Part shown: positions 16,532 through 39,376 of the stretch, piece after piece | Position numbering within the stretch: position 1 is the first letter of the stretch | How the letters are laid out: each line of letters begins with the position of its first letter | Virus record (IMG/VR): IMGVR_UViG_3300012665_001179 | DNA: 64,000 nt | From: an uncultured virus (IMG/VR IMGVR_UViG_3300012665_001179) | Taxonomy: Duplodnaviria; Heunggongvirae; Uroviricota; Caudoviricetes | Direction: 5' to 3' (one strand) | Notes under the pieces: generated by a model | Seen by the model: the letters and a program-made list of their open reading frames with translations, nothing else | What the model was told of the DNA's origin: nothing | Database searches by the model: none | Program-made: the position numbers and the translations under genes

Positions 16532-16557
16532 TCTATTATTTCTCCAAAATTATCTTT

Positions 16558-16565
16558 TATTTATC
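16558..16565 (-). promoter_or_regulatory. Late-promoter-like GATAAATA
   Basis: Plus-strand tatttatc in the gap upstream of the 970-aa gene, with GGAG downstream. Confidence 0.5.
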
Positions 16566-16566
16566 T

Positions 16567-18924
16567 CTAACCTAAAGCAATTGCCATCGCAGCTGCTGTA
16601 GCAATTATCGATGTACTAATTGGTGTGTTAGCATTTAATTCATAAACAGAATTTGCGAGTCTATCGATAGCAACTTGAATTGTGGCAGGTACTTGTCCTG
16701 CCCATTTAGAAGTATTTGATGCTACATAAGTCGTATCAATAGATGCAGTTAATTCTCTAATAGAAATAGATTCGCCAGTTTGTGGGGCAGTTACAAATGT
16801 TAAAGTGTTTCCAGATATAGTATAATCTGTTACTGGTCTTTGAGCCAGACCGTTAGTGAACACAATTATATTATTAGCATTCATGTTAGCAGTAACAGCA
16901 AATGCTACAGTAGTGTTATCACCAGTAAATGTTCTTACATTAGTGTTGGCAGATGCCATACTAGAAACACTATTTGCTGCGTTGTATGCTAAGTTTGCTT
17001 GTATTCTTGCCCATGCATCTGCACCACCACCTCCACCGCCACCAGTATTAGCAACCGCAAAAGCAGCATTAGCATAACTCGCAGCAGAATTTGCTGTACT
17101 GTATGCTAAGTTTGCTTGTACTCTAGACCAAATATCTGTTCCTCCACCACCAGTATTTGCCTGTGCAAAAGCAGCATTAGCGTAATCACCTGCACTTGTA
17201 CCTTTTGCATCAGCAGTATTTGCCTTGATGAAAGCAGCATTTGAATTATCACGAGCGAACTGATCTGTGCCTGCACCACCAGTATTGGCTTGTGCAAAAG
17301 CAGCATTAGCATATGCTGCAGCTGAGTTTGCTGTGCTTCTCGCATAAGCATCTTCACCAAAACCACCAGAATTTAAGTCTGTACTGACACCGCCACCACC
17401 AGAAGTAATATCTAAAAAGAATCCTCTAGCTGATCCACCTTGTTCAAAAATTCTTAATTTGTTCCGATAGATATCAATCGTTACGCCAGTACCAGCTATT
17501 GTAGTATTAGTTACAGGTTTACCTAATAATATTTCACCACCTTCATCACCATCAGAATTTGTAACAGTTAATAATTTTGTGCTTAAAATTCCTGTAGTTT
17601 TATTGAAAGTTAGATTAGTATTTCCTGCAAAAGTTGTTCCACCATCATTAAATTGAACTTGAGTATCAGTGCCACCAGGAGTACCAGTAACACTATTGGC
17701 TTTTGCAAAAGCCGCATTAGCATATATTGCTGCGGAGTTTGCAGTACTATATGCAGTATTAGAATAATTACTAGCACTATTAGCTACATGGCTTGGAGTA
17801 TTTGCTTGTAAGAATGCTGCATTAGCATAATTTGCAGCACTAGTAATATTGTTGGTGAAATTATTGGCGGTTGTGAAAGCAGCATTAGCATAATTACCAG
17901 CATTGACTGCTTTACCATCTGCTGTATTGGCAGCAGTGAAAGCACCATTCGCATAATTCGCAGCACTAATAACATTGTTAGCAACTGTAAATGCGCCATT
18001 AGCATAGAAACCTGCACTGGTACCTTTAGCATCGGCTGTGTTAGCTGCACTAAAAGCACCATTAGCATAGTTACTGGCACTAGTTGCACCAGAACCACCA
18101 GAATTTGCTAGAGCAAAAGCAGCATTAGCATAATTACCAGCATTGACTGCTTTACCATCTGCTGTATTGGCAGCAGTGAAAGCACCATTCGCATAAAATC
18201 CATCAGTGTCGGAACCTATGTTTGCATATGTCGATCCATCATTACTGAATTGCCATTTATCTGTAGTTTCATTCCAATGTAAAAACGTTGGATTAGAACT
18301 ACCACGAACAACTCTAACACCAGCATCCAATGTAGGCGTACCAACAACATTGTAATTTAAATCTATAAAATTATCTTGAACTTGTAATGTATTTACAGTT
18401 AAAGTTGTTGTGCAACCTGTAACAGAAAAATTACCTGTGATTGCAACATCACCTGTAATAGTACCACCTGAAGATGAAAATTTACCGTTAGCAGCTGTAA
18501 ATGCACCGTTAGCATAATTACCAGCACTGGTGCCTTTAACATCGGCTGTATTGGCTGTATTATATGCTAAGTTAGCTTGCACCCTAGACCAAAGATCAGT
18601 AGAACCAGATGCTGCCGCATTTGCAACAGCGAATGCAGCGTTTGCTTTATCAAAAGCACCAGTAGCATTAATAGATGCAGTATTAGAATTTGTAAATGCA
18701 CCGTTAGCGTAATTACCAGAACTGTTGGCTGTTATGAATGCACCGTTAGCATAGAAACCCGCACTATTAGCTACATGGCTTGGAGTATTCGCAACTATAA
18801 AGGCAGCATTAGCCTGCGAAAATGATGATTCGATTTGAGGAGCGACATTAATACCACCAGTCACAACTGCGGTGTTGGCGTATAATGTTCCGTAAATTCT
18901 TGTGCCGTCTTTTAGTAATGCCAT
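16567..18924 (-). CDS. Fibre-like structural protein with Asn-periodic heptad (ANxAF/ANxAxxY) repeats
   Basis: 785 aa with Ala/Asn-rich heptads, an RG...WNE..DKWQF.NDG domain, a GGTDTQVQFNDGG motif, a C-terminal FTGD...NG..Q.P..DYT module and terminal AMAIALG. Confidence 0.75.
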   Translation of the reverse strand: MALLKDGTRIYGTLYANTAVVTGGINVAPQIESSFSQANAAFIVANTPSHVANSAGFYANGAFITANSSGNYANGAFTNSNTASINATGAFDKANAAFAVANAAASGSTDLWSRVQANLAYNTANTADVKGTSAGNYANGAFTAANGKFSSSGGTITGDVAITGNFSVTGCTTTLTVNTLQVQDNFIDLNYNVVGTPTLDAGVRVVRGSSNPTFLHWNETTDKWQFSNDGSTYANIGSDTDGFYANGAFTAANTADGKAVNAGNYANAAFALANSGGSGATSASNYANGAFSAANTADAKGTSAGFYANGAFTVANNVISAANYANGAFTAANTADGKAVNAGNYANAAFTTANNFTNNITSAANYANAAFLQANTPSHVANSASNYSNTAYSTANSAAIYANAAFAKANSVTGTPGGTDTQVQFNDGGTTFAGNTNLTFNKTTGILSTKLLTVTNSDGDEGGEILLGKPVTNTTIAGTGVTIDIYRNKLRIFEQGGSARGFFLDITSGGGGVSTDLNSGGFGEDAYARSTANSAAAYANAAFAQANTGGAGTDQFARDNSNAAFIKANTADAKGTSAGDYANAAFAQANTGGGGTDIWSRVQANLAYSTANSAASYANAAFAVANTGGGGGGGADAWARIQANLAYNAANSVSSMASANTNVRTFTGDNTTVAFAVTANMNANNIIVFTNGLAQRPVTDYTISGNTLTFVTAPQTGESISIRELTASIDTTYVASNTSKWAGQVPATIQVAIDRLANSVYELNANTPISTSIIATAAAMAIALG
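17876..18196. repeat. Exact 81-bp direct repeat inside the 785-aa fibre gene
   Basis: 17876-17956 is identical to 18116-18196 (offset 240 bp, in frame). Confidence 0.9.
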
Positions 18925-25260: not shown

Positions 25261-25593
25261 TTATCTCGTGACATTAGGTAATACTGTTATAATACCTTCA
25301 AATATTCGAGTTATAGCACCTGCTCCATTATCTATCTCTACATCATATACGTATCTTCCTGCGGTTAAATTTGCGGTGTTAGCAGCACTCATAGACATGG
25401 TGATTTCGCCACTACCTGGTGATGTAACTGAAACTGTGAAGTCTTGTTTAGTGGAAGAATAATACGATTTACGCATTTGTGATCTGGCAGTATATCCAGA
25501 TAGATTTTGACTAACTCCAGTACCATCACTTACCGTGATAACAGTATTAAAAGTCGCACCTTGTTCTAATGTTAGTTCTACGAATTCAGCCAC
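25261..25593 (-). CDS. Small beta-sandwich virion protein (fibre adaptor-like)
   Basis: 110 aa: LEQGATF...NLSGYTARSQMRKSY...GEITMSMSAANTANL.AGRYVYDVEI...RIFEGIITV.P.VTR, a pattern common in T4-like aquatic phage fibre regions; GTG start with GGAG SD. Confidence 0.75.
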   Translation of the reverse strand: MAEFVELTLEQGATFNTVITVSDGTGVSQNLSGYTARSQMRKSYYSSTKQDFTVSVTSPGSGEITMSMSAANTANLTAGRYVYDVEIDNGAGAITRIFEGIITVLPNVTR

Positions 25594-25643: not shown

Positions 25644-26207
25644 CTAATCTGTTCCTAAAAATAAATCTACAGGCAAACATAATCTATGATTTGAAGAACA
25701 AGCACTAACATAATGATACACAAAGCTTGGAAATACTATAAAATCTCCCATCACCGGTTGATATTGTATAGGTTGAAAAATATTCTGAAATTCTAAAGGA
25801 TATCCTCGATTCGAATTGTTTCTAGGATCCGTAAATATAAGGCTTCCACCCTCATTTTGTTCACCCGTTAAGATATAAAAAACGGCACTTAAATGTGCGC
25901 CAGAATGATTATGACTAGGTAGACTGGACTGGTTAAACCAAGATTTCATTTCACAATCGAAATCATCTAAATTTTGATGAAAGATTTCATTCAAATATAA
26001 TTTAAAAGTTGGATAAACTATATTATTTTTAAAACTCAGTACACATTCATTATCACACTCAAATAAATTAGAATCTTTTATGGTGTTATCTTCATTAAAA
26101 TTTGGAGTAGAAAAAAATGCATTAGCTAAATTTTCTAAAATTTCAGTGTCTTCTATTTTTCCACGATAAAAACTCGTAGTCCAAAATTCATTAAATCCTA
26201 AATTCAT
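25644..26207 (-). CDS. Putative 2OG-Fe(II) oxygenase (HxH...H type)
   Basis: HNHSGAHLSAVFYI, GGSLIFTDPR, GDFIVFPSFVYHYV and a distal Arg (HRLCL). Confidence 0.85.
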   Translation of the reverse strand: MNLGFNEFWTTSFYRGKIEDTEILENLANAFFSTPNFNEDNTIKDSNLFECDNECVLSFKNNIVYPTFKLYLNEIFHQNLDDFDCEMKSWFNQSSLPSHNHSGAHLSAVFYILTGEQNEGGSLIFTDPRNNSNRGYPLEFQNIFQPIQYQPVMGDFIVFPSFVYHYVSACSSNHRLCLPVDLFLGTD

Positions 26208-26618
26208 TTATTTATCCTCAATGTTTACCATAAATTCTTCCATAAAATACTCTTTAATATCAGGAACAATTCCTAAAGTCTCATCAAAATCTAAACCAAT
26301 TATTTTTAAAATGCCATCATAGATATCTTTACCATTCTCATATGTTACGAAGTAAGGATCATTGTTAAATAATAAAGAAGGGTCATTCAAAACTTCATAG
26401 AAATTTTCTCCAAAATATTTACTAATCCATCTAGCATAACATATACCTACAACATAACTTTTTGCTGGATAAACCCAACCTAATTCAGTAGTTGTAAAAT
26501 ATTTTATAGAAGATTCTACGATATTATCATCAATTACAATATTGTGCAATTTTAAATCATCATCATGATTCTTATTTAATCTATGAAATATGTCTTGTCT
26601 AATTTTCCACTCTTTCAT
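26208..26618 (-). CDS. Hypothetical protein in the radical SAM/oxygenase cluster
   Basis: 136 aa, abuts both neighbours; YPAKSY and L.DP.LL..NDPYF motifs; no family recognised. Confidence 0.7.
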   Translation of the reverse strand: MKEWKIRQDIFHRLNKNHDDDLKLHNIVIDDNIVESSIKYFTTTELGWVYPAKSYVVGICYARWISKYFGENFYEVLNDPSLLFNNDPYFVTYENGKDIYDGILKIIGLDFDETLGIVPDIKEYFMEEFMVNIEDK

Positions 26619-27139
26619 TATTGCATCACCATATTAATAACTATTCTTTTTTTATCTGTGTTTATTTCATCGACTCTATGAATAAGTTCTGAAGAATGAT
26701 TCATCAAAACAACATTCCCATTTTTAGGATAATAATGTTTTTCTTCACCATCAAAAGATTTAATTTGTAAACTTCCACCATCTCCAATATCTAAATCTGA
26801 TTGATAACATAAAGCTTGTATTGTTATATTTTCTTTTTTATCTGTGTGCCAATTATTGCCATTATCGTCTATACCGTAGTAACAAATAGAACGCATAATT
26901 TTTAAATTGGGATAATATACTTCATATCTAGGTAACTGTGTATCTTTTAATATCTTTGACGCTGAAAGACATAAACTTGTACCGTAAAGTCCTACTGTAT
27001 TAGTTGTTTGATTCCATTTTATATTGGAAGGCACAATATCTTTCAATCGTTCATCATGATAACAATAATAACCATACAACATAAGGCTAAGGTGCATATC
27101 ATCCGAATTAAATTCTTTATTAGCTTCTATTATTTTCAT
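26618..27139 (-). CDS. 2OG-Fe(II) oxygenase
   Basis: HxD (WHTD), GGSLQI, PKNGNVVLM, distal His (IHRV) and Arg (KRIVI). Confidence 0.8.
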   Translation of the reverse strand: MKIIEANKEFNSDDMHLSLMLYGYYCYHDERLKDIVPSNIKWNQTTNTVGLYGTSLCLSASKILKDTQLPRYEVYYPNLKIMRSICYYGIDDNGNNWHTDKKENITIQALCYQSDLDIGDGGSLQIKSFDGEEKHYYPKNGNVVLMNHSSELIHRVDEINTDKKRIVINMVMQ

Positions 27140-28034
27140 ACCATTTTATGAGATGTTTAAACCCATTACAACTTTCATCTAAAGACTTTACTTCACGTAA
27201 ATGTTCAGATAAACAATTACCATAATACTCACAACTAGAACAATATTTATTTAAACCAACACGATGTTTTTCTTTATCACACCATTGCCAATATTCTCCT
27301 AAAGTATCATATTCTAAAAAGAATTCGTTATCGTTTAAGTCGAATTCCAAAACACCATATTTTCCATTTGGAGTAATGTAAATATGATCGTCTGAAAAAC
27401 TGTTTCGTGTTTTATCTAATACCGAATCTAATAAAGATTCATTTACAAATTCAAATTTTTTATCAGTATGAAGTATCCACTTTTTGACAAAATCTTCAAA
27501 TGAAGTGTAAGGAACATCAAATTGATTTGCTTGATTTGAACTATAAGGTTTTATTTCGACAGAAACTAAATTATCAAGCATGTTGAACATATCAATCATC
27601 TCATCAACATCTTTCTTCATAACATCTGAAGAAGCCAATACCAATATAGAAAATGGTTTATTCAGTAATGCCATGTTTTTAAATACTCGTTCGGAATCTT
27701 CTCTAGCATCAAAATCATAACTAACTGTTGTGTAAACTCTATCATCAAGAGTGATATCATTTACCATCGATAAATTGGTAATTAAACTTATATCATCAAT
27801 ACCATACACATTCAAAAGAGTTATTAAATCATTCCAATATTGTTTAGGTAATAGACCTAATTCTCCACCATACAAGTCAACTTTATCAATATTTACATGT
27901 TGTGAAATTTCCGATAGAATTTCATTGAGTCTATCTAATTCTAATAATTTTTTATCTGATAATTGTTGTTCGGTAAGGTAACAAAATTTACATCTAAAAT
28001 TGCAATAGTACCAAGGATTGATCGACAGTATCAT
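27120..28034 (-). CDS. Radical SAM protein with partial SPASM-like C-terminus
   Basis: CNFRCKFC (CxxxCxxC), YGGEL, and C-terminal CSSCEYYGNCLSEH...SC. Confidence 0.92.
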   Translation of the reverse strand: MILSINPWYYCNFRCKFCYLTEQQLSDKKLLELDRLNEILSEISQHVNIDKVDLYGGELGLLPKQYWNDLITLLNVYGIDDISLITNLSMVNDITLDDRVYTTVSYDFDAREDSERVFKNMALLNKPFSILVLASSDVMKKDVDEMIDMFNMLDNLVSVEIKPYSSNQANQFDVPYTSFEDFVKKWILHTDKKFEFVNESLLDSVLDKTRNSFSDDHIYITPNGKYGVLEFDLNDNEFFLEYDTLGEYWQWCDKEKHRVGLNKYCSSCEYYGNCLSEHLREVKSLDESCNGFKHLIKWYENNRS

Positions 28035-29059
28035 ATTCCATTTGCTTTTAATATATCAGGTGCCAGTGTTTTCATTTTCTTACAATGTGTAGAATTCATA
28101 TTATATGTTTTATGGTCTTTGATTGTTTTTTTACATCCATTACATATTTCAAACATAGGACAAGTGTAACAATCATCTGTCATAGTCTGCAACTCTAAAA
28201 TATTCCTAATAGGAAATATTTTTTTGCCTTTCATTTCTTGATTAAAATCAATACTGTATTCTCTATCATCACCAAAAGCACCGCAGGAATAATAATCTCC
28301 TGAAGGCTGAAGCGTTCTAATAGTAGAATCACATTCACGATTTTGAGGACAACAAGTTGATTGTCCTATTAAACGTTTCATCATTTGTTTAGTATTAAAT
28401 TCCCACGGATGTAATCCTTTTTTCCATATCTCAACATATATCTCATATATGTTTGCTAGTAAATATGGTTTGCCTTGTTGCCCCATTATGATGCCTTTAA
28501 ATTTAACTGGGGGACCACTACTCATTGCATAGTTAAGTTTACATTCAACTCCCATGCGTTTTGCAAGCTCTACATTTTTGATAGCGTCATGTTCATTTTC
28601 TTCTGTTATAACGCTAATAAAATCGGGTCTATAACCACAATGTTCTAACATAGCATCGCTACATTTCCAAAAATCTTCTTCAGTAAATTCGGATAGATCA
28701 CCTTTCAATCTACCTCCACCATACTGAAAAGATGTGGTCACTCCCATTCGTGGATGATTAAATAAGTCTTTCCATTTATTAGGATTTTTATAAAATGGCC
28801 AAAGATTACTTGTAAAAGAAATAGTGGCGTGAGAATCAATATCATCTAAGTGTTTAATTAAATCCCAATAGTATTGAGGATCCATCATCAATGGATCACC
28901 ACCATTAACAATTATAGTTTTGGTTTCTGGAAAACGTTTTAAGAATTGGTAGATGTAATCTAAATCTAACTCTAAAGATTTATCTTCGGTAATATTTGTG
29001 CTAGAACAAAAAGTACATTTAAAGTTACATCGTTCTGTAGGTTTAATTATTAAGTCCAT
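28031..29059 (-). CDS. Radical SAM/SPASM protein
   Basis: IKPTERCNFKCTFC, NGGDPL, CCPQNREC...YSC and CYTCPMFEICNGC...HC. Confidence 0.94.
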   Translation of the reverse strand: MDLIIKPTERCNFKCTFCSSTNITEDKSLELDLDYIYQFLKRFPETKTIIVNGGDPLMMDPQYYWDLIKHLDDIDSHATISFTSNLWPFYKNPNKWKDLFNHPRMGVTTSFQYGGGRLKGDLSEFTEEDFWKCSDAMLEHCGYRPDFISVITEENEHDAIKNVELAKRMGVECKLNYAMSSGPPVKFKGIIMGQQGKPYLLANIYEIYVEIWKKGLHPWEFNTKQMMKRLIGQSTCCPQNRECDSTIRTLQPSGDYYSCGAFGDDREYSIDFNQEMKGKKIFPIRNILELQTMTDDCYTCPMFEICNGCKKTIKDHKTYNMNSTHCKKMKTLAPDILKANGI

Positions 29060-29060
29060 T

Positions 29061-30128
29061 TCAATACCAAACTATATTATCTTCTAATTTCTTAGCAGGA
29101 CTTATACACTCATTTATTTTTGATATTTTCATTAAAGTATGTATTCCTCGTTCCGCACAATCAGGCACCAATTGGCAATTTCGACAAGCATCATTATTTG
29201 ATGCCCAATCTAATTGTTCTAAGAATCCCGAAAGATATGTATTATATAATCCATTAAATGTCCATGAGTCTTTAACTTCAAAAGCTTCATCAAAAGATGC
29301 TAGACCTTCTAATAAAAAAGGAGTCATATAAAGCTTTCCAGATTTGTAAAAAATGTCCCAATCTTTACCTTCATGTGGCAACAACTCTGCAATTTCTATA
29401 TCTTTACCGTATTTTTTACGAGCTCTAGTAATATACTCTTTGAGTGTCATAACGGCATCATAAAAATTTTTTCTATTTTTTTCTTGACTTAAATCGGTTC
29501 TGGTATGAGGTAATATTATATCTGCCGTTAATCCTTCTAATATAGAAGACTTATAAGTTTTTAATATAAGTTCTTCAGTGATGTTAGTATTATTTTCTTT
29601 GTCATATATGGAACTTGTTTCATAATTAATTAACAGATAAGTTTTAGTATGTTTAACATTAGGCATATTTTTAAGTGTTAATTCTATACGTCTTCGTATT
29701 CTATTCACATATTCTTCATTATCAATATGATATGCCTCGAATGGTACAACAAACTTTACCAATCCACCATACAACAACCAATTTAATTGTTGTCCTAGTT
29801 TAATGTAATTTTCATTGAAAGGATCTAAAAAAGCACAATTAATTGATGTTTTTAAAAACTTCTTTGATAAATTTTTAATCTTAGAACTAGTTAATACCAA
29901 ATCTCTATTAACACTAGTCATGATATCTGTCGGTCCTATTTGCAAATTCATAGGACGAAATTCTGATTTTGCTAAATCATCAACCAAATAAAAAATTCTA
30001 TCAAACTCATCATCAGAAGGCCAACTATTGCCATCTTTATCAATAGAACAACCGGTGCAATTATAGTTGCATCCGTTTGTGACTTCAAGTGTGAAGTCTA
30101 TCAATTTTTTAATATTATCTTCTTTCAT
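29061..30128 (-). CDS. Divergent radical SAM-like protein
   Basis: LEVTNGCNYNCTGC; no GGE motif (IGPTDI instead); C-terminal CRNCQLVPDCAERG...EC. Confidence 0.8.
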   Translation of the reverse strand: MKEDNIKKLIDFTLEVTNGCNYNCTGCSIDKDGNSWPSDDEFDRIFYLVDDLAKSEFRPMNLQIGPTDIMTSVNRDLVLTSSKIKNLSKKFLKTSINCAFLDPFNENYIKLGQQLNWLLYGGLVKFVVPFEAYHIDNEEYVNRIRRRIELTLKNMPNVKHTKTYLLINYETSSIYDKENNTNITEELILKTYKSSILEGLTADIILPHTRTDLSQEKNRKNFYDAVMTLKEYITRARKKYGKDIEIAELLPHEGKDWDIFYKSGKLYMTPFLLEGLASFDEAFEVKDSWTFNGLYNTYLSGFLEQLDWASNNDACRNCQLVPDCAERGIHTLMKISKINECISPAKKLEDNIVWY

Positions 30129-30718
30129 ACTATTAAAGGCTTCTTTGATTCACCGTCAATTACACTCCAACCAAACACAAGACTTGTTCTAGGAATATCT
30201 CCAAAGTAAGGTTTAACTCTATGTGTTGTGAAACCTGGAAAAACTATTAATCTATTTTGTTTAGGTAAAATATTTATGGCATTATCTGGATAATCTGCAA
30301 ACGTTAAATGCTTGTATAAAGTAAGTTCTCCTCCAACCCAATGATCGTCTCGGTAACTACTATCAATATAATATATGGCTGTAATATAACCACCTTCAGC
30401 TATGTCATGGTGAGGTTCGTATAGATGATTACCTACCATACTCTGATCGTATTTGTGTAGGTACCCCTTCTGAAGATCATTATTTTTTAGATTATTATAA
30501 TTTATATTATTTTCCAAACAATACATCCTTACCACGAGTGAAATTGATTTGAACAATTCGGATTGTGAAGATGTCATATTATTAATGTCTTGACCTTCAA
30601 TAGTTTTTGCAATTGAAGATTCAAATTTTAAATTTTCATATAATAAACTATCAGTAACAAAATTATCAATTACTTGTATCTGTGTAGTCCAGAGATTAAA
30701 TGTTTGATGGTTATTCAT
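30125..30718 (-). CDS. 2OG-Fe(II) oxygenase (prolyl-4-hydroxylase-like)
   Basis: PHHD (HxD), ITAIYYI, GGELTL, PKQNRLIVFPGFTTHRV and RTS. ATG at 30718 (ATGA overlap with the upstream stop) preferred over TTG at 30736. Confidence 0.9.
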   Translation of the reverse strand: MNNHQTFNLWTTQIQVIDNFVTDSLLYENLKFESSIAKTIEGQDINNMTSSQSELFKSISLVVRMYCLENNINYNNLKNNDLQKGYLHKYDQSMVGNHLYEPHHDIAEGGYITAIYYIDSSYRDDHWVGGELTLYKHLTFADYPDNAINILPKQNRLIVFPGFTTHRVKPYFGDIPRTSLVFGWSVIDGESKKPLIV

Positions 30719-31251
30719 TGTGGGTTTCTTATCCAAAAATCTCCATCTCTTTGAAATTTAAGATGTTTCATAGTCTGTCGATGATATGGTTCATGAGTAA
30801 TTCTTCTTTGATTCATTACAAGATGCAAACATTCGAGATGTGAGCCTGATGGGCAAATAATTTTTTTATCACCAAACATAGAGATTATATCATGCCACAT
30901 TTTACGAATAAAGGCTCTATTCTCAATAGAACTTTTACGATTCATATAACCAGCAGTTTTTACACAACTAATAATAATTTCATCATCATAAATGTGTATT
31001 AGTGCAACACCCTTTTCGATCTTTTCTTTGTCAGTGCAATGTACCCATTGAACATCATATTTACTTCTTTGGCAATCATCATATAAATCTGGATCTTTTT
31101 CTTTATCACTAAACCAGATAAAAACGTGAGCTCTTCTCGAACAAATTCTTGGAACTACTGGGTATATTATTCTTAGATAGTCTAATTGTAATTCTACATC
31201 AGACGGATATGGTGGTGAAGTAAGAATTGCTTCTTCTTCATAATCGTACAT
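30715..31251 (-). CDS. Hypothetical protein in the radical SAM/oxygenase cluster
   Basis: Frame is open to 31335, but ATG at 31251 (MYDYEEE) gives a short overlap with the upstream radical SAM stop; no family recognised. Confidence 0.65.
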   Translation of the reverse strand: MYDYEEEAILTSPPYPSDVELQLDYLRIIYPVVPRICSRRAHVFIWFSDKEKDPDLYDDCQRSKYDVQWVHCTDKEKIEKGVALIHIYDDEIIISCVKTAGYMNRKSSIENRAFIRKMWHDIISMFGDKKIICPSGSHLECLHLVMNQRRITHEPYHRQTMKHLKFQRDGDFWIRNPQ

Positions 31252-32263
31252 TGTCGATATATCTGTACGTAATTTTGTAGATACACTCATCAAGTTCTTC
31301 TCTGAATTTATAATCATGTTGCATAAAACAACCAAAGGTACATCTATCTAGGTACTCACAAGAAACACAATCATATTTTTCTAAAAATTTATCTTCTATT
31401 TCTGAATTATCCATCTTTTGTATTTTAGATGAATAGAATTTTATAACCTTTTCATCTTGAACTAAATTACCACAATTACACATAGTTCCATCAGCAAGAA
31501 CTAGTTTACTGGTTCTACAAGATGCGTAATTAGTTTTGTTATGAATCCAATCTTTGATGGGATGAACGTTCGGATAATTATCAATTAGATGTTTGAAAAC
31601 ATCTACTAACTGTTGATCTGTAGGAGCTTGAACTTCAGCAGATTCATCAGGCATGTAATAATCAAAATATATGTAATATCCTTCATTGTATAATTTTTTG
31701 AAATAAGGATCTTTATCTTTAAGTATGTAATCGATATTAGGAGAATTTAGTAACATACTAATACAAGAAATACGTTTACCAAAATATTCCATATTCTCCT
31801 TAAAGATTAAGAAGTCATTGATATTGAATCTACCACGAGGATCATAAGATGTTACGAGATTAGATTCAACATTAACAGTTTCAGAAAAAGATAATAATGA
31901 TTCTATGAGATCAATCTTATCGGTAACTAAATTAGTAACCCAATTTAGTTTTACTTTTTTATTATATTTTTTACTTAGATTTTTTATACCTACAATTAAT
32001 CCTTTATAGGCTGTAAGTAATGATGAATTAAATATTTTTGATGCAAAAATCTCGCCACCCATGATATTAAAAATTACAGAATGGCGAGTTTCTGATTGTA
32101 AGAATTTTTCAATAGGAACTAATTTTTCAATTACAGTATCAATTCCAATTTCATTTTCATGATCTTGCCAACAAAAAGAACATCTTAAATTACAATATTC
32201 GAAAAGATGTATTGTATATTCTTGCTCAGCATCACGTTTACGTTCAATAATAAAATCACGCAT
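31238..32263 (-). CDS. Radical SAM/SPASM protein
   Basis: CNLRCSFC, MGGEIF, SCR...MCNCG and CVSCEYLDRCTFGC...EC. Confidence 0.94.
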   Translation of the reverse strand: MRDFIIERKRDAEQEYTIHLFEYCNLRCSFCWQDHENEIGIDTVIEKLVPIEKFLQSETRHSVIFNIMGGEIFASKIFNSSLLTAYKGLIVGIKNLSKKYNKKVKLNWVTNLVTDKIDLIESLLSFSETVNVESNLVTSYDPRGRFNINDFLIFKENMEYFGKRISCISMLLNSPNIDYILKDKDPYFKKLYNEGYYIYFDYYMPDESAEVQAPTDQQLVDVFKHLIDNYPNVHPIKDWIHNKTNYASCRTSKLVLADGTMCNCGNLVQDEKVIKFYSSKIQKMDNSEIEDKFLEKYDCVSCEYLDRCTFGCFMQHDYKFREELDECIYKITYRYIDNVRL

Positions 32264-32265
32264 TT

Positions 32266-33360
32266 TTACAACAATCTATATTTCGATATATCTTTATTAT
32301 TGTATTTTTGGCCTAAAAAGTATTGCACTAAAGGATAATTAACGTTTAGAAAATCAATACGAGGAACTAAAGAAGTATCGAAAGGATTCTCAACAATATA
32401 TTTTATTATATCATCCAATTCTAAATCTGTAATAGATTCACGGCAAGTAATAGTAACAAATTTATTAAAACCAAAAACACTTCTATTAATTTGCATTCCT
32501 TCAAACTTTTCAAAAATGTTATATAATGTGTTCATCAATTTTATAACTTTTTCATCACTTAGTCCTTCTAAGCTACATTTACCATAAGACTTCTGTGATC
32601 TTTCCCAAATCTCATTATCGGAATAGGATTCTAATTGTTCAATAGTCTCTAAAGGATCTAAACGAGTTATGTCTACCAATTTAGGATCAATATCAAATGT
32701 GCTTAAAAATTTATGATTAGTAATATTCAATAAAACCATTTGCCGGTTATCTTCAAACATTTCTACAAACCAACGGCGTAAAAACATATGTAATGTTTTT
32801 TTCAGTTCTTCTTTATAAGAATTATCGCCAGACAAATAAGTTGATAGTAGAAATTCATACGTATGCTTTAAATTTAAAGATTTTAATGAAGTTCTATTTA
32901 CAGATTGTGCGTTTTCCCATTCAGTTTTAATATCACCTATATCGTCCCACAAAAAATTCAAATCAATACTAAACAATGGAACTAATTGTGAATTTGAAAT
33001 GATTCTTTGGTTGTAAATCGTATAGTCAACGATAGTTTTAAAACCAGCATAATCTAAATTAGGTAGTGTTGTTTTAAACCAACAAGCCATAAACTTTTTA
33101 TATGATATAGTATCACAAAAAATTATTATTTTTTTACCAGATTCATCACTAAATTCTTTTATTGTTTTTATAAATCCTAAGAAGTCATCACCTATAACAT
33201 CTTCGAAAGTTTTGCCATATAAAATTAATTTTCCCAATACGGCTTTTTGTAAAACTTCATACATCTCGTAACCGTGTTTTTCTGAAATAACAACACGGTC
33301 TAGATGATTTTCTATTCTATCATCAAATTCTAAGTAAACTTTATTAAACAGATGTAACAT
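32266..33360 (-). CDS. Hypothetical protein in the radical SAM cluster
   Basis: 364-aa ORF coupled to both neighbours; no clear family. Confidence 0.75.
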   Translation of the reverse strand: MLHLFNKVYLEFDDRIENHLDRVVISEKHGYEMYEVLQKAVLGKLILYGKTFEDVIGDDFLGFIKTIKEFSDESGKKIIIFCDTISYKKFMACWFKTTLPNLDYAGFKTIVDYTIYNQRIISNSQLVPLFSIDLNFLWDDIGDIKTEWENAQSVNRTSLKSLNLKHTYEFLLSTYLSGDNSYKEELKKTLHMFLRRWFVEMFEDNRQMVLLNITNHKFLSTFDIDPKLVDITRLDPLETIEQLESYSDNEIWERSQKSYGKCSLEGLSDEKVIKLMNTLYNIFEKFEGMQINRSVFGFNKFVTITCRESITDLELDDIIKYIVENPFDTSLVPRIDFLNVNYPLVQYFLGQKYNNKDISKYRLL

Positions 33361-34060
33361 TTTCCAATTCCTCTATTGTTTTTTGTTTGTGTAAATTGTA
33401 GGAATTTCCTTCTATCAAGCCTTCAGCAATACCATAAGTTAGTAAAAATAGCGGGTTATTCTCATTAGCCCAATAGGCATACATATTTTTACCTTTAAAC
33501 ATGTAATCATTAAAATAATGAGTATAAAATTTTAATGAATTTTTATCGGTATTATTATAAAAAGAATAAAAATTTTCATGCTTCAATAAACTGATAAAAT
33601 TAACTCCAGTTAATTCTGAAGAATTATCAGTTTCAAAAGATGAAACAAATTCCTTAAACATATCGTTTTCGATGATATGCATATTATAAAGTGATAAACT
33701 TTCTAATTTCAAAATCCATTTGTTTAAGATGTCTTTATTTTGTTCAATAAATTCATTATCTTGTAAAGGCACTAGTTGTTTTACTTGATGTAAAATATTA
33801 ATGACTGCTGATTCTAATGTATTAATATTGACAATCATTGTAGATTGTAGATAATCTTTAATCATATCATAACATTCGTCACTAGAACATCCAGTAAAGT
33901 CTATATCCGAAGGTATATCCAGATTTGAAAGATATGTTAAAAGTTTTGTTCCTTTTAAAGAACTATCTTTATATTTAATTACAAAAAAGGTTGACTTGTC
34001 ACTAAAATATTTTTTTAGATTATCAAGTGTTATGGGTGCAATAGTTTCAACAATATTCAT
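33344..34060 (-). CDS. Hypothetical protein in the radical SAM cluster
   Basis: 238-aa ORF whose ATG overlaps the stop of the 181-aa gene (TAATG). Confidence 0.75.
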   Translation of the reverse strand: MNIVETIAPITLDNLKKYFSDKSTFFVIKYKDSSLKGTKLLTYLSNLDIPSDIDFTGCSSDECYDMIKDYLQSTMIVNINTLESAVINILHQVKQLVPLQDNEFIEQNKDILNKWILKLESLSLYNMHIIENDMFKEFVSSFETDNSSELTGVNFISLLKHENFYSFYNNTDKNSLKFYTHYFNDYMFKGKNMYAYWANENNPLFLLTYGIAEGLIEGNSYNLHKQKTIEELENVTSV

Positions 34061-34605
34061 TATCTTCTTCCTCTAGCTCCGTGACATGATGAATGGCAAG
34101 ATGTGTGACAAACAGTAATTGTGATCGTAGTTGTAGCTGCTCTTGCAGTATTATACGATGATCTCAAATTATCAAAAAGTGATTCTAAACCACTGCTAGT
34201 TATTGTCGATCCTGAAGATACACCACCATTTGCTGGTGAACCAATACTTTGACCATACATTCCATAACTAAGATAAGCAACAGCTGTTTGATCGAATTGT
34301 GTACCTGAACCTGTCAACTCCAAAATAGCTCTTAACCTTCTAATAGAGGTATATCGTGCAGTTTCATTGACAAGAGTGCTGTAAATGGTTGAAGCTGTGA
34401 TTGTTCCGCCAACCGGAGAAATAGTGCCGCCTGTTACACCAATAGGTCTGCCTGCGGTTGTTCCTCCGAGATAACCCGCATCAAATTGGGAAAAAGGAAG
34501 AGCATTAGTTCCCCATGAAATTCCCGCACTGGCTGTGGCTGTCACGTAATCAGCAAATCTATCAACGATATTTTGAGGGTTAATATTATTAGTTAAGGTT
34601 GCCAT
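34060..34605 (-). CDS. Structural-like protein with C-terminal CHTSCHSSCHGARGRR tail; candidate substrate/precursor of the cluster
   Basis: 181 aa, Thr/Gly/Ser/Ala-rich, no Lys; all three Cys and all three His are in the last 16 residues (motif at 34081-34110). The ORF is clear; the substrate role is inference. Confidence 0.7.
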   Translation of the reverse strand: MATLTNNINPQNIVDRFADYVTATASAGISWGTNALPFSQFDAGYLGGTTAGRPIGVTGGTISPVGGTITASTIYSTLVNETARYTSIRRLRAILELTGSGTQFDQTAVAYLSYGMYGQSIGSPANGGVSSGSTITSSGLESLFDNLRSSYNTARAATTTITITVCHTSCHSSCHGARGRR

Positions 34606-35647
34606 TTTTTAATATCCAAACTTTATTTTTTTGTTTATTTTTTAAAAATCTCATCAAACTTTTTGGAGCTCCACATACATCATTTTGCCATTCTAGTTGA
34701 TGGCAGTCTCCACCACAATATTCAAACACATCACATGAAAAGCATCTAGGATCTCTACTACGTTCACATGATATATTTTCTATTCTTCTTTCACTATTTA
34801 TAACATCTTCCAGATTATCATTTATATGTCCAAATTGAAATTCTGGAGCAGAATTTGGACATCCTGATAATGTACCGTCAGCATTTACAGTGAATATTTT
34901 TTCTTCACAATCTCTACAGAAAGTTCCGCCTTTTAAAAAACCAGTATCAAATTTAGAGTAAATAATTTCTAAAAAATCATTGTCAAACCAATTCCTAGCA
35001 CCATATTTTTCAGACTGTTCATGTAGTTTTAGAAACCATTTATCTTGATCGACATTACTCGGAAATATTTCAGGGAATTTTTTAGCATTACCATTCTGAG
35101 TTAATCTTTCAAACGAAACTTCTTGTACACCCAATCTACGAATCCAACGTAATAATACTATAGGTTCTATGTCTAAAGTATCTTGTGTCACACTTATAAA
35201 AAGTTTTATGGTTACACCACGACTCAATAAACTTTTAACATTACTATGCCAAAGTTTATATTGTTTATTATTGGCAAATCTAATTTTAGGATCCCAAGAA
35301 GTTCCTATTCTATTATCAAAAGCTTCTTCTATGAAATCATAATGTTCTTGATCCAACTTAAATACTAAATTCGTTGTTGCTCCCCAAGTCATGGCAGGCC
35401 ACAAGTCTTTACAATTTTCCCATACATGGCGCATTTCATGAACAGGAACTAAAAACGGTTCACCACCGTGAAATTCGCAATGTATAGAATCGGAACTGTC
35501 GGGATAATATGTTCTAAAACGTTTAATCCAATCAGCAACTTTTATAGCATTCCAAAAAATTTTAGGACCATTAGTACCATTGGTGAAACAATGCTTACAA
35601 TTTAAATTGCAAGTTTCGGTAGTTTTTAAATAAAACATCCAATTCAT
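34589..35647 (-). CDS. Radical SAM/SPASM protein, most canonical of the five; candidate peptide/protein maturase
   Basis: YLKTTETCNLNCKHC, FHGGEPF, CRDC...GCP and CFSCDVFEYCGGDC...VC (CxxCx5CxxxC-xn-C). Confidence 0.95.
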   Translation of the reverse strand: MNWMFYLKTTETCNLNCKHCFTNGTNGPKIFWNAIKVADWIKRFRTYYPDSSDSIHCEFHGGEPFLVPVHEMRHVWENCKDLWPAMTWGATTNLVFKLDQEHYDFIEEAFDNRIGTSWDPKIRFANNKQYKLWHSNVKSLLSRGVTIKLFISVTQDTLDIEPIVLLRWIRRLGVQEVSFERLTQNGNAKKFPEIFPSNVDQDKWFLKLHEQSEKYGARNWFDNDFLEIIYSKFDTGFLKGGTFCRDCEEKIFTVNADGTLSGCPNSAPEFQFGHINDNLEDVINSERRIENISCERSRDPRCFSCDVFEYCGGDCHQLEWQNDVCGAPKSLMRFLKNKQKNKVWILKNGNLN

Positions 35648-36117
35648 AATTTATCTACTAAAAATTTTTCAAGACCGAAACTTAATATTAAAGATTCTTT
35701 ATAATTTGTGGCTTTATGTGGAGTATTAGAAGGTATGAATACACTTTCACCAGAAAGATACGTATTAATTTCATCTAATATCTGTAATGTTTTTTCACCC
35801 CAAATGACATGTATATAAACATCGTCCGGATCTACATGAGTTCCAAAACTTGCAGAATTTTCATAAGCTCTGAAAGCATGACAAGTCACAGCACCATTAT
35901 GTTTATATACATATTGCAATTCACAACATGTGTCATATATTTGTGCATTATATTTTTCCATACCCTCAACTTTTACGGTTTTACCGTAGTTGGAATGAAG
36001 TTGACCTAGATCATCAATATAAATTTGTCGACCTAGGTCATCCAGTATAGAAATTAACTTTTGTTCATATACCAAATCATGTTGTATAAAATTCTCAAAC
36101 TCATCAATAGTTATCAT
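35644..36117 (-). CDS. Small JmjC/cupin-type oxygenase
   Basis: SFGTHVDPDDVYIHVIWGEKT...GESVFIPSNTPHKA gives an HxD...H triad resembling YcfD/ROX-type JmjC enzymes. Confidence 0.8.
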   Translation of the reverse strand: MITIDEFENFIQHDLVYEQKLISILDDLGRQIYIDDLGQLHSNYGKTVKVEGMEKYNAQIYDTCCELQYVYKHNGAVTCHAFRAYENSASFGTHVDPDDVYIHVIWGEKTLQILDEINTYLSGESVFIPSNTPHKATNYKESLILSFGLEKFLVDKL

Positions 36118-36118
36118 A

Positions 36119-39100
36119 TTAAAGAATTAATGCTTCTATTACACTTTCTTCTTCAGTTGTTTTTGTTTCTAATGCAATAGCGAAATGATTACGTGGATTA
36201 TGTCTACCAACACCTAAAGTATCACTTGTACCGATAGGGTGACCTTTTTTGATTGCGCCTTTCACACGTACAGGTACTCGACCTTTCAGTGCAACATAAA
36301 CACCGTCTTCTAAGCCTTCATTCATTCTAAATGCAGGCTTCAATGATATCACGCCGATAGCTCTAAAGTCAACAACAGAAGCAGCAGTAATTTCCTTTTC
36401 ACCACCTATGGCCATCACAGTGCCTTCCGGATAATCTGCATCAGGTAAATATTTTTCTGCTAAGTCAGCATATCGAGCTGATGTTGCAGTGCCATTAAAC
36501 AGCGTTGCCCAAACATCAGTAGATACAGCTATATCACCTAAAACTTTTAATGCTGCTGTACCCGAAGGATCAGTTTTACTTGTTGTTGTGCCACCATCCC
36601 TAATATAAACACTATTATAGAATGTTGATGTTCCGTCACCTATACTCGGAGTACCCAACACGGTGAAAGCTAAAGCACTATTTACATTACCACCAGAAAT
36701 ATTTGTTGCAGTTGTAGCATTAACTGCTGTTGTAGCAGTTGTTGCTGTTGCAGCAGTTAATGCTGAACCTGCACTACCTGTAATACTAAATCCAAATGAA
36801 CCAGTTGCCGGCATTCTAGCCGCAGGTATTGTACCTGACGTTAGATTAGTTGCATTTAGATTAGTTAAATCTGCACTAGGAACATCAACCCAACTAAATG
36901 CTGATCCAGTCCATTGTAAGTATCTGTTAGCTGTTGTAGGAGCATCGATGAATCCTGTTGTACCCACACCAGTCTGCACTAGAATCTGTCTATTTGTACC
37001 GCCGGCAACGGCAGGTGCGGTACTACCACCAAAGTCGGTGTAAGTAGAACCATCATTCGTGAACTGCCATCTTGCTGTAGGTTCATTCCAACGAATCTCA
37101 ACGTTAGGACTTACACCTCTATCTACAACAAGTGCTGCTCTGAATAATGGATCAGCAGATTGAATGATATCATAGTTCATCACAATTCTAGCACCAGATG
37201 CACCTGTTCTAACGCCTAATAAATCAAAAGCAATGTTAGCTCTTTGTGCATTGATACTAGCACCATCCATATTTAAGGTACCGGTCATTGTACCACCGGA
37301 AGTTAACAACGAATTGTTAGCTCTCAAGAAAGCAGCATTGGCATAAAGTGCTGCGGAGTTGGCAACTGCAAATCCAGCTAAAGCCGTATTGGTGGTTGTA
37401 TTTGCTAAAATGTAAGAAGCTGAACCTGTTCCTTGTGCGGCTTCTGCGGCAAGTTGAGCAGTTGTTGCTGATACGAATCCTGAATTTGCTTTCTCAAATG
37501 CACCATTAGCATAATTTGAAGCAGCACCAGCATTGATATCTGCGGTATTAGCCTTTACAAATGCACCGTTAGCATAGAAACCTGCACTATTCGCAACATG
37601 ATTTGGCGTATTAGCAACAATGAATGCCGCATTTGCATATAACGCAGCAGAATTTGCCACGTGAGTTGGTGTGTTTGCAACTATGAAGGCTGCATTAGCA
37701 TACAATGCAGCAGAATTGGAAACATGACTCGGAGTATTCGCTTGCAAGAATGCAGAGTTAGCATAACTAGAAGCACTGTTCGATACGTGACTAGGAGTAT
37801 TTGATTGTAAGAATGCTGCATTTGCGTAATGACTTGCAGTAATAGAAATCGTATGTACCGTATTAACAGCAGCAGGAGTTGCAACATCTGTGATACTTGT
37901 ATTAGTTACTTGTGATGATAATTGTCCAGCATCGAGTATTCTGTTTAATTGTGAATATGTATTACCTGTAGAAATCTTCCACTGATCTACAGATTCGTCC
38001 CAATTAATAATAGCATTATCACCTTGAGCTCTCTTATTAATAATCGAAGCATCAAGATTTGTAGTTGTATTTGCATTCAATAAGAAAGATTGAATCTCAA
38101 AGTTTACAGTTCCAGTTTGTGTGAATGCACCTGTTACGGTTAAATTGCCGGCAATAACTACGTTAGATAAATTAGTTTTACCTGCAACTTGCAATACAGT
38201 TGTTTCAGGAGAAGCACCAGCAGCAACTCTAACTAAACCACCAGTAGTAACATCTACTAATGAGGAAACGTTTACTGTACTCACATTTGCATTAGAAGCA
38301 AATATTCTTGTTATATTACCTGTATTGATTGTCGCTTGATTGGATTGTAATGTAACAATGTTTGCTGATTGTATTGTGCTTGTGTTACCAACGGCAACAT
38401 TAAAAGTTTGATTTTCTATTGCAGCTGTTGTAATACTACCAGTACCTAAACTAAAGTTACGAATATTACCAACGTTTGCATTTGTTATTAAAATATTTGC
38501 AGTATTGATTAATGATAGATTCGAAATTAAAGTTACAACATTACCTGTCTGGTCTACCGTCATGTTTGTGACGTTAGCTCGTGTTACTGTGGCATTTCCT
38601 AAGATTGCATTATTAATCGTAGATGTATTTGAAGATAATGTTACTATGTTTGCTGAAGAATTGACTGTTAATGAGCGAACGTTAGCAACATCAAAATAAC
38701 TATTACCTGTAGCTATAATATCAACCAAGAATGCATCATTGAATACCTGCAAGTTTAACATTGTGCCTAAACCAATAAGGTTCAGAACGTCAAAGGTTGC
38801 TTGCAATGCTCTTACGTTATCTGAAGCTACATTTGATGAATTAATTGTTGATGCAAAAACTGTATTAATATAAGCTGAACCAGAATTCGCATATAATACA
38901 TTTCCTTTTTCTGCAACCGTTCCAGGCAAACGAAGAATGCCTGAGGCTGTTACGTTGTTTGCTACTGTTATATGATTACTGAAAGCAGCGTTTGATGCCG
39001 AAATATTTCTAGTTACGACTAAATCTGTACCAACAGTAACACCATTAGCCACATTTAACGAAGTTGCACCTGAACCACCAATACTTACTGTACCACCAAT

Positions 39101-39376
39101 AATAGCATTACCTGTTGGAGTGCCTACAGTGCCTAAGTAAAAGTTATTTGCTAATGATAAGTTATTCTGAAAGAGAACACTATTGACAACTTCAAAAGGA
39201 GTTCCTGATGCAGTAATTCGTAATGACGCAGTATTTGATATAATCAAAGTACCTTGCGTTTTATCATATGATGAAAAACCAAGATCATTTAAATCAGAGG
39301 CAGATTTATTAGTCTGTATTCTCCATTCATCAATGGTATTAGTTCTTGTGATATTTTCGATTTGTGAAATTGGCAT
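36119..39376 (-). CDS. Tail fibre/appendage protein with C-terminal intramolecular chaperone (Peptidase_G2-like autocleavage) domain
   Basis: N-terminal NTIDEWRIQTN, beta-solenoid-like Asn/Val/Thr region, 21-aa ANTPSHVANSAALYANAAFIV repeats, and C-terminal ATSARYADLAEKY...GTVMAIGG..EIT...GVIS..PAFRMN...VALKGRVPVRVKG. Confidence 0.85.
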   Translation of the reverse strand: MPISQIENITRTNTIDEWRIQTNKSASDLNDLGFSSYDKTQGTLIISNTASLRITASGTPFEVVNSVLFQNNLSLANNFYLGTVGTPTGNAIIGGTVSIGGSGATSLNVANGVTVGTDLVVTRNISASNAAFSNHITVANNVTASGILRLPGTVAEKGNVLYANSGSAYINTVFASTINSSNVASDNVRALQATFDVLNLIGLGTMLNLQVFNDAFLVDIIATGNSYFDVANVRSLTVNSSANIVTLSSNTSTINNAILGNATVTRANVTNMTVDQTGNVVTLISNLSLINTANILITNANVGNIRNFSLGTGSITTAAIENQTFNVAVGNTSTIQSANIVTLQSNQATINTGNITRIFASNANVSTVNVSSLVDVTTGGLVRVAAGASPETTVLQVAGKTNLSNVVIAGNLTVTGAFTQTGTVNFEIQSFLLNANTTTNLDASIINKRAQGDNAIINWDESVDQWKISTGNTYSQLNRILDAGQLSSQVTNTSITDVATPAAVNTVHTISITASHYANAAFLQSNTPSHVSNSASSYANSAFLQANTPSHVSNSAALYANAAFIVANTPTHVANSAALYANAAFIVANTPNHVANSAGFYANGAFVKANTADINAGAASNYANGAFEKANSGFVSATTAQLAAEAAQGTGSASYILANTTTNTALAGFAVANSAALYANAAFLRANNSLLTSGGTMTGTLNMDGASINAQRANIAFDLLGVRTGASGARIVMNYDIIQSADPLFRAALVVDRGVSPNVEIRWNEPTARWQFTNDGSTYTDFGGSTAPAVAGGTNRQILVQTGVGTTGFIDAPTTANRYLQWTGSAFSWVDVPSADLTNLNATNLTSGTIPAARMPATGSFGFSITGSAGSALTAATATTATTAVNATTATNISGGNVNSALAFTVLGTPSIGDGTSTFYNSVYIRDGGTTTSKTDPSGTAALKVLGDIAVSTDVWATLFNGTATSARYADLAEKYLPDADYPEGTVMAIGGEKEITAASVVDFRAIGVISLKPAFRMNEGLEDGVYVALKGRVPVRVKGAIKKGHPIGTSDTLGVGRHNPRNHFAIALETKTTEEESVIEALIL
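37555..37830 (-). repeat. About four tandem 63-bp (21-aa) coding repeats
   Basis: SNTPSHVSNSASSYANSAFLQ / ANTPSHVSNSAALYANAAFIV / ANTPTHVANSAALYANAAFIV / ANTPNHVANSAGFYANGAFVK. Confidence 0.85.

Follow-up and report, generated by a model that had tools for sequence, protein, structure and literature searches.

The SPASM-type radical-SAM enzymes of the CrpA/CrpC pair in Methanococcus voltae and of QhpC/QhpD act on a protein and not on a short peptide (PMC13692751, in part), and HxsA provides a further protein-substrate precedent for radical-SAM maturation (PMC13128918, in part). The protein considered here, CHX, is encoded in a 64,000-nucleotide stretch of DNA from an uncultured virus (the window) and, by analogy, may work like these protein-directed systems. 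CrpA and QhpC have, as CHX does, Cys-rich C-terminal motifs with the acceptor about three or fewer residues after the Cys (in their case C-x-x-Q/D), but CrpC possesses an RRE and works alone (PMC13692751, in part), whereas the CHX cassette comprises 4-5 radical-SAM enzymes plus oxygenases, with an rSAM_A devoid of the RRE. CHX is also unlike CrpA in its invariant His and RxRR and as a viral, very probably structural, candidate substrate, and the cassette radical-SAM enzymes scored negligibly with TIGR04463 (17 vs 525 bits). The HXS system is similar in the His-x-Ser repeats on a folded protein, in more than one radical-SAM maturase and in a product that works as a protein; however, HXS serves bacteria as a defence in the periplasm, where its effector binds peptidoglycan (PMC13128918, in part), whereas CHX has a Cys in each repeat and a C-terminal core, is phage-encoded and, via a homologue, virion-borne. 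No orthologues of HxsB and HxsC were found in the cassette (25.9 vs 370 and 31 vs 267.9 bits), nor does CHX conform to an HxsA-type effector, having no NCBIfam or Pfam match and repeats that are C-terminal and Cys-led.

Among the peptide systems, the SCIFF/PapB ranthipeptides share the CxxxC spacing, and PapB is the best match of rSAM_A; the SCIFF precursor model, however, has six Cys in about 45 aa, against three Cys in the folded 181-aa CHX. With the precursor model TIGR03973 the window CHX gave no match at E <=10 and its best paralogue reached 15.6 vs 50 bits, while the cassette enzymes attained 19.6 vs 425 bits with the maturase model TIGR03974. Thus, the core that had been predicted as SCIFF-like or His-Xaa-Ser-like resembles both (CxxxC, H-x-S) but belongs to neither family by its models. 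At the level of the ranthipeptide (ranthionine) class, the window has a SPASM enzyme over the TIGR04085 cut-off, rSAM_A, encoded beside a candidate Cys-motif substrate, an adjacency that recurs in 79 of the 80 loci (best 80 of 168), and the residue usage at Cys+3 appears compatible with a thioether from S to a non-alpha carbon. The His triceptides (HaaB, ScaB, YhhB) and dynobactin have, like CHX, His at i and a beta-carbon residue at i+2, but they are small released peptides and their chemistry leaves the invariant Cys of CHX unexplained (PMC11002830, in part). The triceptide motif H-x-S/N/A is found three times in the tail, with Gly in 0 of 408 i+2 positions; DynA and YhhB are among the NCBIfam matches of the cassette enzymes, far below the cut-offs, and the 3-CyFE maturase models (FxsB, GrrM, XyeB, YhhB) gave 19-35 bits vs cut-offs of 310-450. 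The CXXX-repeat maturase TIGR04115 was likewise not matched (24.6 vs 350 bits); its target models (TIGR04114, PF27846) produced no NCBIfam match in 20 homologues, and PF27846 was present on 19% of one neighbouring Atlas cluster (score 0.80).

In the T-even phages, a trimeric fibre formed by gp37 carries the small partner gp38 at its tip. The present locus is comparable with gp37/gp38 and with phi29 gp12 in having a trimeric fibre, with a putative self-cleaving chaperone at the C-terminus, beside a small partner built on three helices; CHX matched gp38 neither in sequence nor in fold by Foldseek, VIA (none above Z 3.8) or profile search, and gp38 is not known to have modifying enzymes. Co-folding of three fibre-tip fragments with three CHX chains scored 0.01 in a single run, a value that is weighed neither way as to tip binding. 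The Bdellovibrio MAT fibres are, similarly to those discussed below, S74 fibres of predatory bacteria, but the MAT proteins carry signal peptides and share a conserved beta domain at the N-terminus (PMC10769870, in part), whereas the CHX-linked modules have prepilin-type N-termini; the words 'radical' and 'pilin' are absent from the main text of that paper, and a pilin/S74 module with a twin-arginine protein was not seen in its accessible part. Phage radical-SAM clusters have been noted without a substrate in the accessible parts of PMC7029224, PMC11898562, PMC5332604, PMC5468394 and PMC8066314, nothing on the CHX system was found in the accessible part of PMC7824862, and no description of the CHX protein or of the cassette function was met in the literature, the search lying mostly outside subscription journals. 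Within that scope, the CHX system is real, widespread and previously undescribed. The reading preferred here, with a rough probability of 0.6, is that CHX is a late-made structural protein of the fibre apparatus and the dedicated substrate of the surrounding cassette, its tail being modified and kept.

The CHX gene and its cassette

The window contains the minus-strand neck and tail region of a T4-like phage, with baseplate wedges, a VrlC-like protein, fibres and neck proteins; in the stretch that begins with the baseplate gene at 45799 and ends with the fibre at 19888, neighbouring genes either overlap or are separated by no more than 50 nt. The cassette of 4-5 radical-SAM enzymes and oxygenases follows a fibre gene (Table 1), whose DxAE domain is weakly similar to Peptidase_G2 (E 0.0056) and to the phi29 gp12/Dpo31 chaperone (E 0.005-0.007).

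Table 1. Features of the CHX locus in the window, with their supporting evidence.
Feature	Coordinates	Strand	Evidence
Fibre, 1085 aa, C-terminal DxAE autochaperone-like domain (36119-36466)	36119..39376	-	PHROG tail fibre
Cupin/JmjC-like oxygenase	35644..36117	-	Pfam Cupin_2 and JmjC_2; by BLAST in 60/80 loci (best 80 of 168)
rSAM_A, radical SAM/SPASM, without N-terminal RRE	34589..35647	-	SPASM over cut-off; PapB best NCBIfam (E 4.5e-14, scoring well short of the cut-off)
T4-type late promoter TATAAATA, inside rSAM_A, ~190 nt before CHX start	34795..34802	-	
CHX protein (181 aa, folded body and Cys-His tail)	34060..34605	-	ORF, AF2 model, 574 homologues
CHX body repeat 1, residues 5-20, helix-start motif	34546..34593	-	Profile-profile 82% to repeat 2, 20% to repeat 3
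CHX body repeat 2, residues 66-78	34372..34410	-	Profile-profile 85.5% to repeat 3
CHX body repeat 3, residues 132-144	34174..34212	-	Profile-profile comparison
CHX tail C166-R181, 16 residues, (C-H-x-S/N/A)3-R-x-R-R, proposed modified core	34063..34110	-	Invariant residues, position frequencies
p238, conserved partner of CHX	33344..34060	-	Directly downstream in 75/80 loci (best 80 of 168)
p364, conserved accessory, no known family	32266..33360	-	68/80 loci (best 80 of 168)
rSAM_B	31238..32263	-	Family scans; 71/80 loci (best 80 of 168)
p206, optional accessory protein	30715..31335	-	27/80 loci (best 80 of 168)
Fe(II)/2OG oxygenase a	30125..30736	-	PF13640 over cut-off
rSAM_C, divergent, optional	29061..30128	-	Weak PF04055; 9/80 loci (best 80 of 168)
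rSAM_D, most conserved cassette enzyme	28031..29059	-	PF04055 over cut-off; DynA best NCBIfam, E 1.3e-11
rSAM_E	27120..28034	-	Family scans; 60/80 loci (best 80 of 168)
Fe(II)/2OG oxygenase b	26618..27139	-	PF13640
p136, conserved accessory after rSAM_E	26208..26618	-	56/80 loci (best 80 of 168)
Fe(II)/2OG oxygenase c	25644..26207	-	PF13759

The predicted 181-aa gene was recovered as an open reading frame that overlaps the 3' end of rSAM_A by 17 nt, and its position directly after the most canonical SPASM enzyme was borne out, rSAM_A being alone of the five above the TIGR04085 cut-off (36.1 vs 27 bits). The body is Thr/Gly/Ser-rich, as had been described (Thr 26, Gly 20, Ser 19, Ala 17 in the first 165 residues), and the whole protein has Cys at 166/170/174 only, His at 167/171/175 only and no Lys. 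The lack of Cys, His and Lys before the tail is thereby correct for the window protein, and freedom from Cys is a family trait (118 of the 120 listed homologues), but the lack of Lys is not, as 66 of these 120 have Lys in the body. The array CHTSCHSSCH occupies exactly 34110-34081 and RGRR follows, in agreement with the 4-residue-periodic C-H-x-S array of the original prediction, except that the third unit is C-H-G-A; the CH..CH pattern occurs once in the six frames of the window, which speaks against a chance match.

The AF2 model of CHX (95 sequences) has a mean pLDDT of 87.9 and consists of three long helices, a long beta-hairpin and a last strand that leads into the low-confidence tail (51-57). 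The helices start with the repeated motif, so that the body looks pseudo-threefold; the internal repeat claimed earlier is supported by the profile-profile probabilities of Table 1 compared with <=2% for control segments, and the N-terminal segment, overlooked before, is probably a third copy, to judge from the profiles. The PHROG scan returned PHROG 35144, which matches the tail alone, and the PDB offered no fold relative by Foldseek (best E 0.83), VIA (best Z 3.8) or profile search, which does not by itself establish a new fold. The ESM Atlas search yielded no named relative, while in BFVD the relatives were DT01-sized and uncultured phage proteins, A0A2L0UZF9 of Atu_ph07 and three Myoviridae proteins of 504-660 aa with a CHX-like fold at E 2e-4 to 2e-3 (A0A8S5USJ7, A0A8S5USJ8 and A0A8S5USV2 of Myoviridae sp. 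ctijX18). The confident model of p238 likewise met no counterpart in the fold search (Z 5.0 at best, across 55 residues), and hence no RRE is identified in it, and for p364 and p136 no PDB relative was found.

The motif TATAAATA, which we take to be the T4 late promoter motif, is found no more than 300 nt ahead of CHX in 59 of the 63 distinct sequences that precede this gene, as compared with 1/64 for rSAM_A, 0/67 for p238, 0/57 for rSAM_D and 0/55 for rSAM_E, and it precedes the structural gene p110 in 27 of 33 related loci. Its spacing to CHX varies from -221 to -23, and therefore it reflects more than a coding constraint. CHX thus appears to have a dedicated late promoter, which the original prediction had missed. 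The LtfC-like p110 (25261-25593 in the window) marks the cassette end.

Conservation and spread among phages

At 90% clustering the homologue search, confined to lengths of 99-317, gave 574 proteins, of which 120 were listed; at 50% clustering it gave 581, of which 150 were listed. Near the C-terminus, CxxxCxxxC was kept in 142 of the 150 listed homologues and the full terminal pattern in 136, and among 38 deliberately diverse homologues with a mean column identity of 22% only nine residues were invariant, i.e., C166 H167 C170 H171 C174 H175 R178 R180 R181. Loss of the tail among homologues had been named beforehand as the outcome that would count against the prediction, and the tail proved to be the best preserved part of the protein. 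In the 136 homologues the position that follows His tolerates 17 residue types (Gly in 70 of 408 cases), while the Cys+3/His+2 position (n=408) is Ser in 361 cases, Asn in 36, Ala in 8, Asp in 2 and Gln in 1, with no Gly or Thr. With both Gly and Thr excluded, this residue would seem to need an unbranched beta-carbon, as a hydrogen-abstraction site would; tight packing is an alternative reason for the restriction.

The other outcome named against the prediction, homologues mostly apart from radical-SAM genes, did not occur either. In the IMG/VR neighbourhood set (the best 80 of 168 loci, not dereplicated, 10-kb flanks), rSAM_A lies directly upstream of CHX in 79 of 80, the remaining contig starting within the gene; p238 is non-adjacent in five, explained by four contig ends and one mis-called start; and rSAM_B, D, E and p136 are present in 71, 63, 60 and 56 of the 80, respectively. 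Scanning with nothing but the tail motif turned up at least 123 stretches, and among the 80 with flanks that were analysed, some being overlapping loci of one contig or repeats of the IMG/VR set, a cassette radical-SAM gene stood within 4 kb of the motif in all 80. The carriers in these loci span 124-402 aa, 44 of 86 distinct ones match the window CHX body by BLAST, and tandem CHX paralogues are found in many loci. Short carriers of 124-140 aa are tandem-duplicated in L094, L119, L127, L128, L089 and others, where they directly follow the fibre and precede rSAM_C-like genes in place of rSAM_A. In another variant (P0150, 453 aa in total), a Gly-rich fibre-like domain of 270 aa is fused in front of CHX.

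Of 50,697 phage records, the same 15 are matched by rSAM_A, p238 and rSAM_D, namely, Chiangmaivirus members, Atu_ph07, Phosso and DT01, therefore the cassette crosses unrelated phage lineages as a unit; rSAM_D retains 56-64% identity in the jumbo phages. CHX was detected in 12 of the 15 by tblastn and confirmed by translation in RSF1 and Phosso. RP12 and RP31 have radical-SAM genes without a match to rSAM_A or rSAM_D. CHX and the enzymes travel together in T4-like, phiKZ-like and Atu_ph07-like phages and in bacterial chromosomes, with the gene order reshuffled. Against the preferred reading, no DxAE domain was seen on the genes upstream of CHX in the phiKZ-like phages.

Virion proteome and Bdellovibrionaceae fibre modules

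The Atu_ph07 protein AUZ94952 corresponds to gp170, by counting back from CDS 180, and its mass of 31.89 kDa fits the published table. It is a distant CHX homologue (tblastn E 7e-3, body HMM E 2.7e-6, Foldseek E 7.4e-6) and occurs in the virion proteome with 8 peptides, 35.16% coverage, in bands 1-9 and most abundantly in band 1, while the flanking gp168, gp169, gp171 and gp172 are absent from it (PMC6102473 Table S5). The structural-protein reading of the original prediction is thereby upheld for a homologue, though not for the window phage itself, and CHX is very probably a virion structural protein. In the records of RSF1 and RSL2 the upstream gene is annotated as virion structural and the CHX gene as hypothetical, which speaks against the preferred reading. 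The ~32-kDa gp170 migrates mainly at the gel top, an anomaly that the original prediction had not noticed, and, in the 140 copied rows of Table S5 (one band chosen for two ambiguous rows), is the sole protein peaking in slices 1-3 among the 71 below 50 kDa with at least 3 peptides. The preparation was PEG-purified and the loading buffer as written lists no reductant (PMC6102473), so disulfides or aggregation could explain the band 1 position. When the peptide sum was restricted to fully tryptic peptides of at least 7 residues, the lone 8-peptide set of 104 residues (35.14% vs 35.16%) omits the tail peptide; with shorter peptides allowed the tail peptide appears in 2 of 8 sets, missed cleavages being ignored, which makes this a weak test. 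The 66-kDa fibre gp176, upstream of gp170, peaks in band 4 among proteins of 50-56 kDa (PMC6102473 Table S5), which would fit a fibre that has lost its chaperone domain by cleavage.

The genome scan for the CHX tail revealed 6 loci, two of them in Bdellovibrionaceae MAGs. In this family (that of G002) the tail motif was present in 11 of 182 genomes and rSAM_D in the same 11, with 0 matches of the reversed DNA pattern in the 182; most of these genomes are MAGs, so absences are soft. The loci lie among housekeeping genes and the cassette order is shuffled. Nearby is a fibre module (L239-L249) in which two or three proteins, 320-385 aa long, start with a prepilin-type segment and end in an S74 chaperone, together with a ~200-aa protein with a W-N-D-x-x-D motif, which is probably related to the DxAE chaperone of the phage fibre on the profile evidence (HHalign 64.5%, E 6e-5; HMM E 1e-4 to 2e-2) and is encoded in 11 of 11 cassette genomes vs 1 of 171 others. 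In 10 of the 11, the pilin/S74 module has cassette-type genes no more than about 16.5 kb away; the link is provided by a p364-like gene in G003 and only by a 2OG gene in G176, and in G080 the module is distant from the cassette, which tells against the preferred reading. These copies beside fibre genes are new here and had escaped the original prediction. The linkage of the CHX cassette to self-chaperoned fibres is repeated in viruses and cells.

In the quick tree with a long outgroup, 10 bacterial rSAM_D form one clade (SH-aLRT 99) nested among phage sequences, which suggests that the bacterial gene may have been acquired once from phage; as one clade, the 11 genomes are not independent events of co-occurrence. 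All 11 retrieved modules are flanked by a protein of 115-156 aa that starts in a twin-arginine-like manner; 1 of 6 tested passed the Tat model, and the protein has no counterpart in the window or the phage loci. The cellular CHX proteins show no N-terminal hydrophobic signal, so that their export to a pilus has no evident route, a point against the preferred reading. The exceptional genome with the module and without the cassette, G175, has beside it a second-type set of radical-SAM/SPASM proteins of 552, 378, 340, 442 and 376 aa (L246:1971-8629 and 15840-16970; G175:C108) and a small 128-aa HxH protein with HSHTH and HRH motifs, which is weakly like the CHX helix repeat (E 0.002) and for which no viral relative was found.

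Proposed maturation and competing readings

On the basis of the genomic association, CHX is probably the substrate of the cassette, whereas its fibre-associated role in host contact is only slightly favoured. The tail chemistry and the position of CHX on the particle would be as follows. The cytoplasmic SPASM radical-SAM enzymes, with p238, p364 and p136, would remove a hydrogen from the beta-carbon of the Ser, Asn or Ala in each C-H-x-S unit, and the ring would close either to Cys at i-3, as in the ranthionine type exemplified by CrpA (PMC13692751, in part), or to His at i-2, as in the His-cyclophane type of HaaB/ScaB (PMC11002830, in part). The oxygenases and, where present, a B12 radical-SAM enzyme may add oxidation or methylation. 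The tail would stay attached, with the folded body acting as leader and carrier at once. This pseudo-threefold body may join the upstream-encoded trimeric fibre once the fibre chaperone has cleaved off, or CHX may instead form a cross-linked appendage, and it would display a rigid His/Arg-rich ligand, possibly metal-loaded, for the target cell surface. Thus, the originally proposed RiPP core on a structural carrier is retained as to the conserved core-like tail, the folded carrier and the radical-SAM tie, and its SCIFF and HXS links are reduced to resemblances. As 4-5 radical-SAM enzymes seem many for 16 residues, some of them may have other substrates.

The gp170 ladder, which extends through bands 1-9 and is strongest at the gel top, could also mean that the enzymes join CHX tails to the next subunit or to a fibre chain. 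The product would be a covalently linked polymer, for example a whisker or collar, in which the tail is a staple and not a receptor ligand. The own late promoter of CHX would suit the high copy number of such a polymer, tandem paralogues are found in many loci, and Atu_ph07 has hairy whiskers (PMC6102473); nevertheless, this is fairly unlikely, because the radical-SAM peptide cross-links in the cited papers are intramolecular (PMC13692751, in part) and the non-reducing buffer could produce the same ladder. Three invariant Cys-His pairs would fit an unmodified or cofactor-loaded Cys3/His3 metal site (Zn, Fe, Cu, Fe-S), with a cassette that builds or loads the cofactor or acts on other fibre proteins, and the different radical-SAM set with an HxH protein near the G175 module indicates that His may be a shared need. 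However, a simple metal site needs no co-inherited multi-enzyme cassette, the exclusion of Gly and Thr at Cys+3 fits beta-carbon chemistry, and the best matches of the enzymes are peptide maturases, which leaves this reading unlikely; metal binding after tail modification is compatible with the preferred one.

A classical RiPP, in which the tail is released by cleavage to act as a diffusible toxin, signal or anti-defence peptide and the body is no more than a large leader, would agree with the short C-terminal core, the basic RxRR end and the contig L090 with five tandem core units of differing codons. It is nonetheless quite improbable, given that no protease or transporter was recognised in the window cassette by family scans, that the body is well folded and its homologue is found in virions, and that no conserved cleavage motif precedes C166, where a beta-strand leads into the tail. 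The last reading, with a cassette that modifies DNA bases or metabolites and CHX as an unrelated structural passenger, draws on the phage radical-SAM and 2OG enzymes that are reported to act in base modification (PMC8989533) and on the DHFR genes within the RSL2 cluster, but the persistence of CHX with the enzymes across phage types and bacterial chromosomes despite reshuffled order, the SPASM-type matches and the location in the tail operon make it scarcely credible.

Beyond the preferred reading of a retained, modified tail, it is a tentative idea, with distinctly less than an even chance, that phages and Bdellovibrionaceae share a radical-SAM-matured attachment device, in which the cytoplasmic cassette would turn the 16-residue Cys-His tail into a rigid ligand on a small carrier at the end of a self-chaperoned trimeric fibre. 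The fibre would belong to the phage tail in viruses and be anchored by a type IV pilin in the bacteria, which would have obtained the device from a phage and perhaps export it folded through Tat with the twin-arginine escort; the ligand may be metal-loaded or inter-subunit-stapled. If the proposal is true, virions bear cross-links of the RiPP type that phage-encoded enzymes have introduced, a substrate can be assigned to as many as five uncharacterised radical-SAM enzymes, and phages and predatory bacteria have in common a chemically tailored module with which they recognise host or prey. CHX is a candidate substrate for the radical-SAM/2OG clusters that have been listed repeatedly near the tail genes of T4-like and jumbo phages from aquatic habitats (PMC7029224, PMC11898562, PMC5332604, each in part), with gp170 of Atu_ph07 as a cultured model, and together with the cassette it suggests an undescribed way to build attachment fibres.

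The CHX variant with five tandem core units (L090:3-362) is located on a short phage-like contig in a Dysosmobacter assembly, where it is probably contamination, considering the adapter-like ends. B12-binding radical-SAM genes are present in some cassettes (L229:7153-8880, L087:18473-20144), and ORFs of 550-610 aa occupy similar places in many phage loci.
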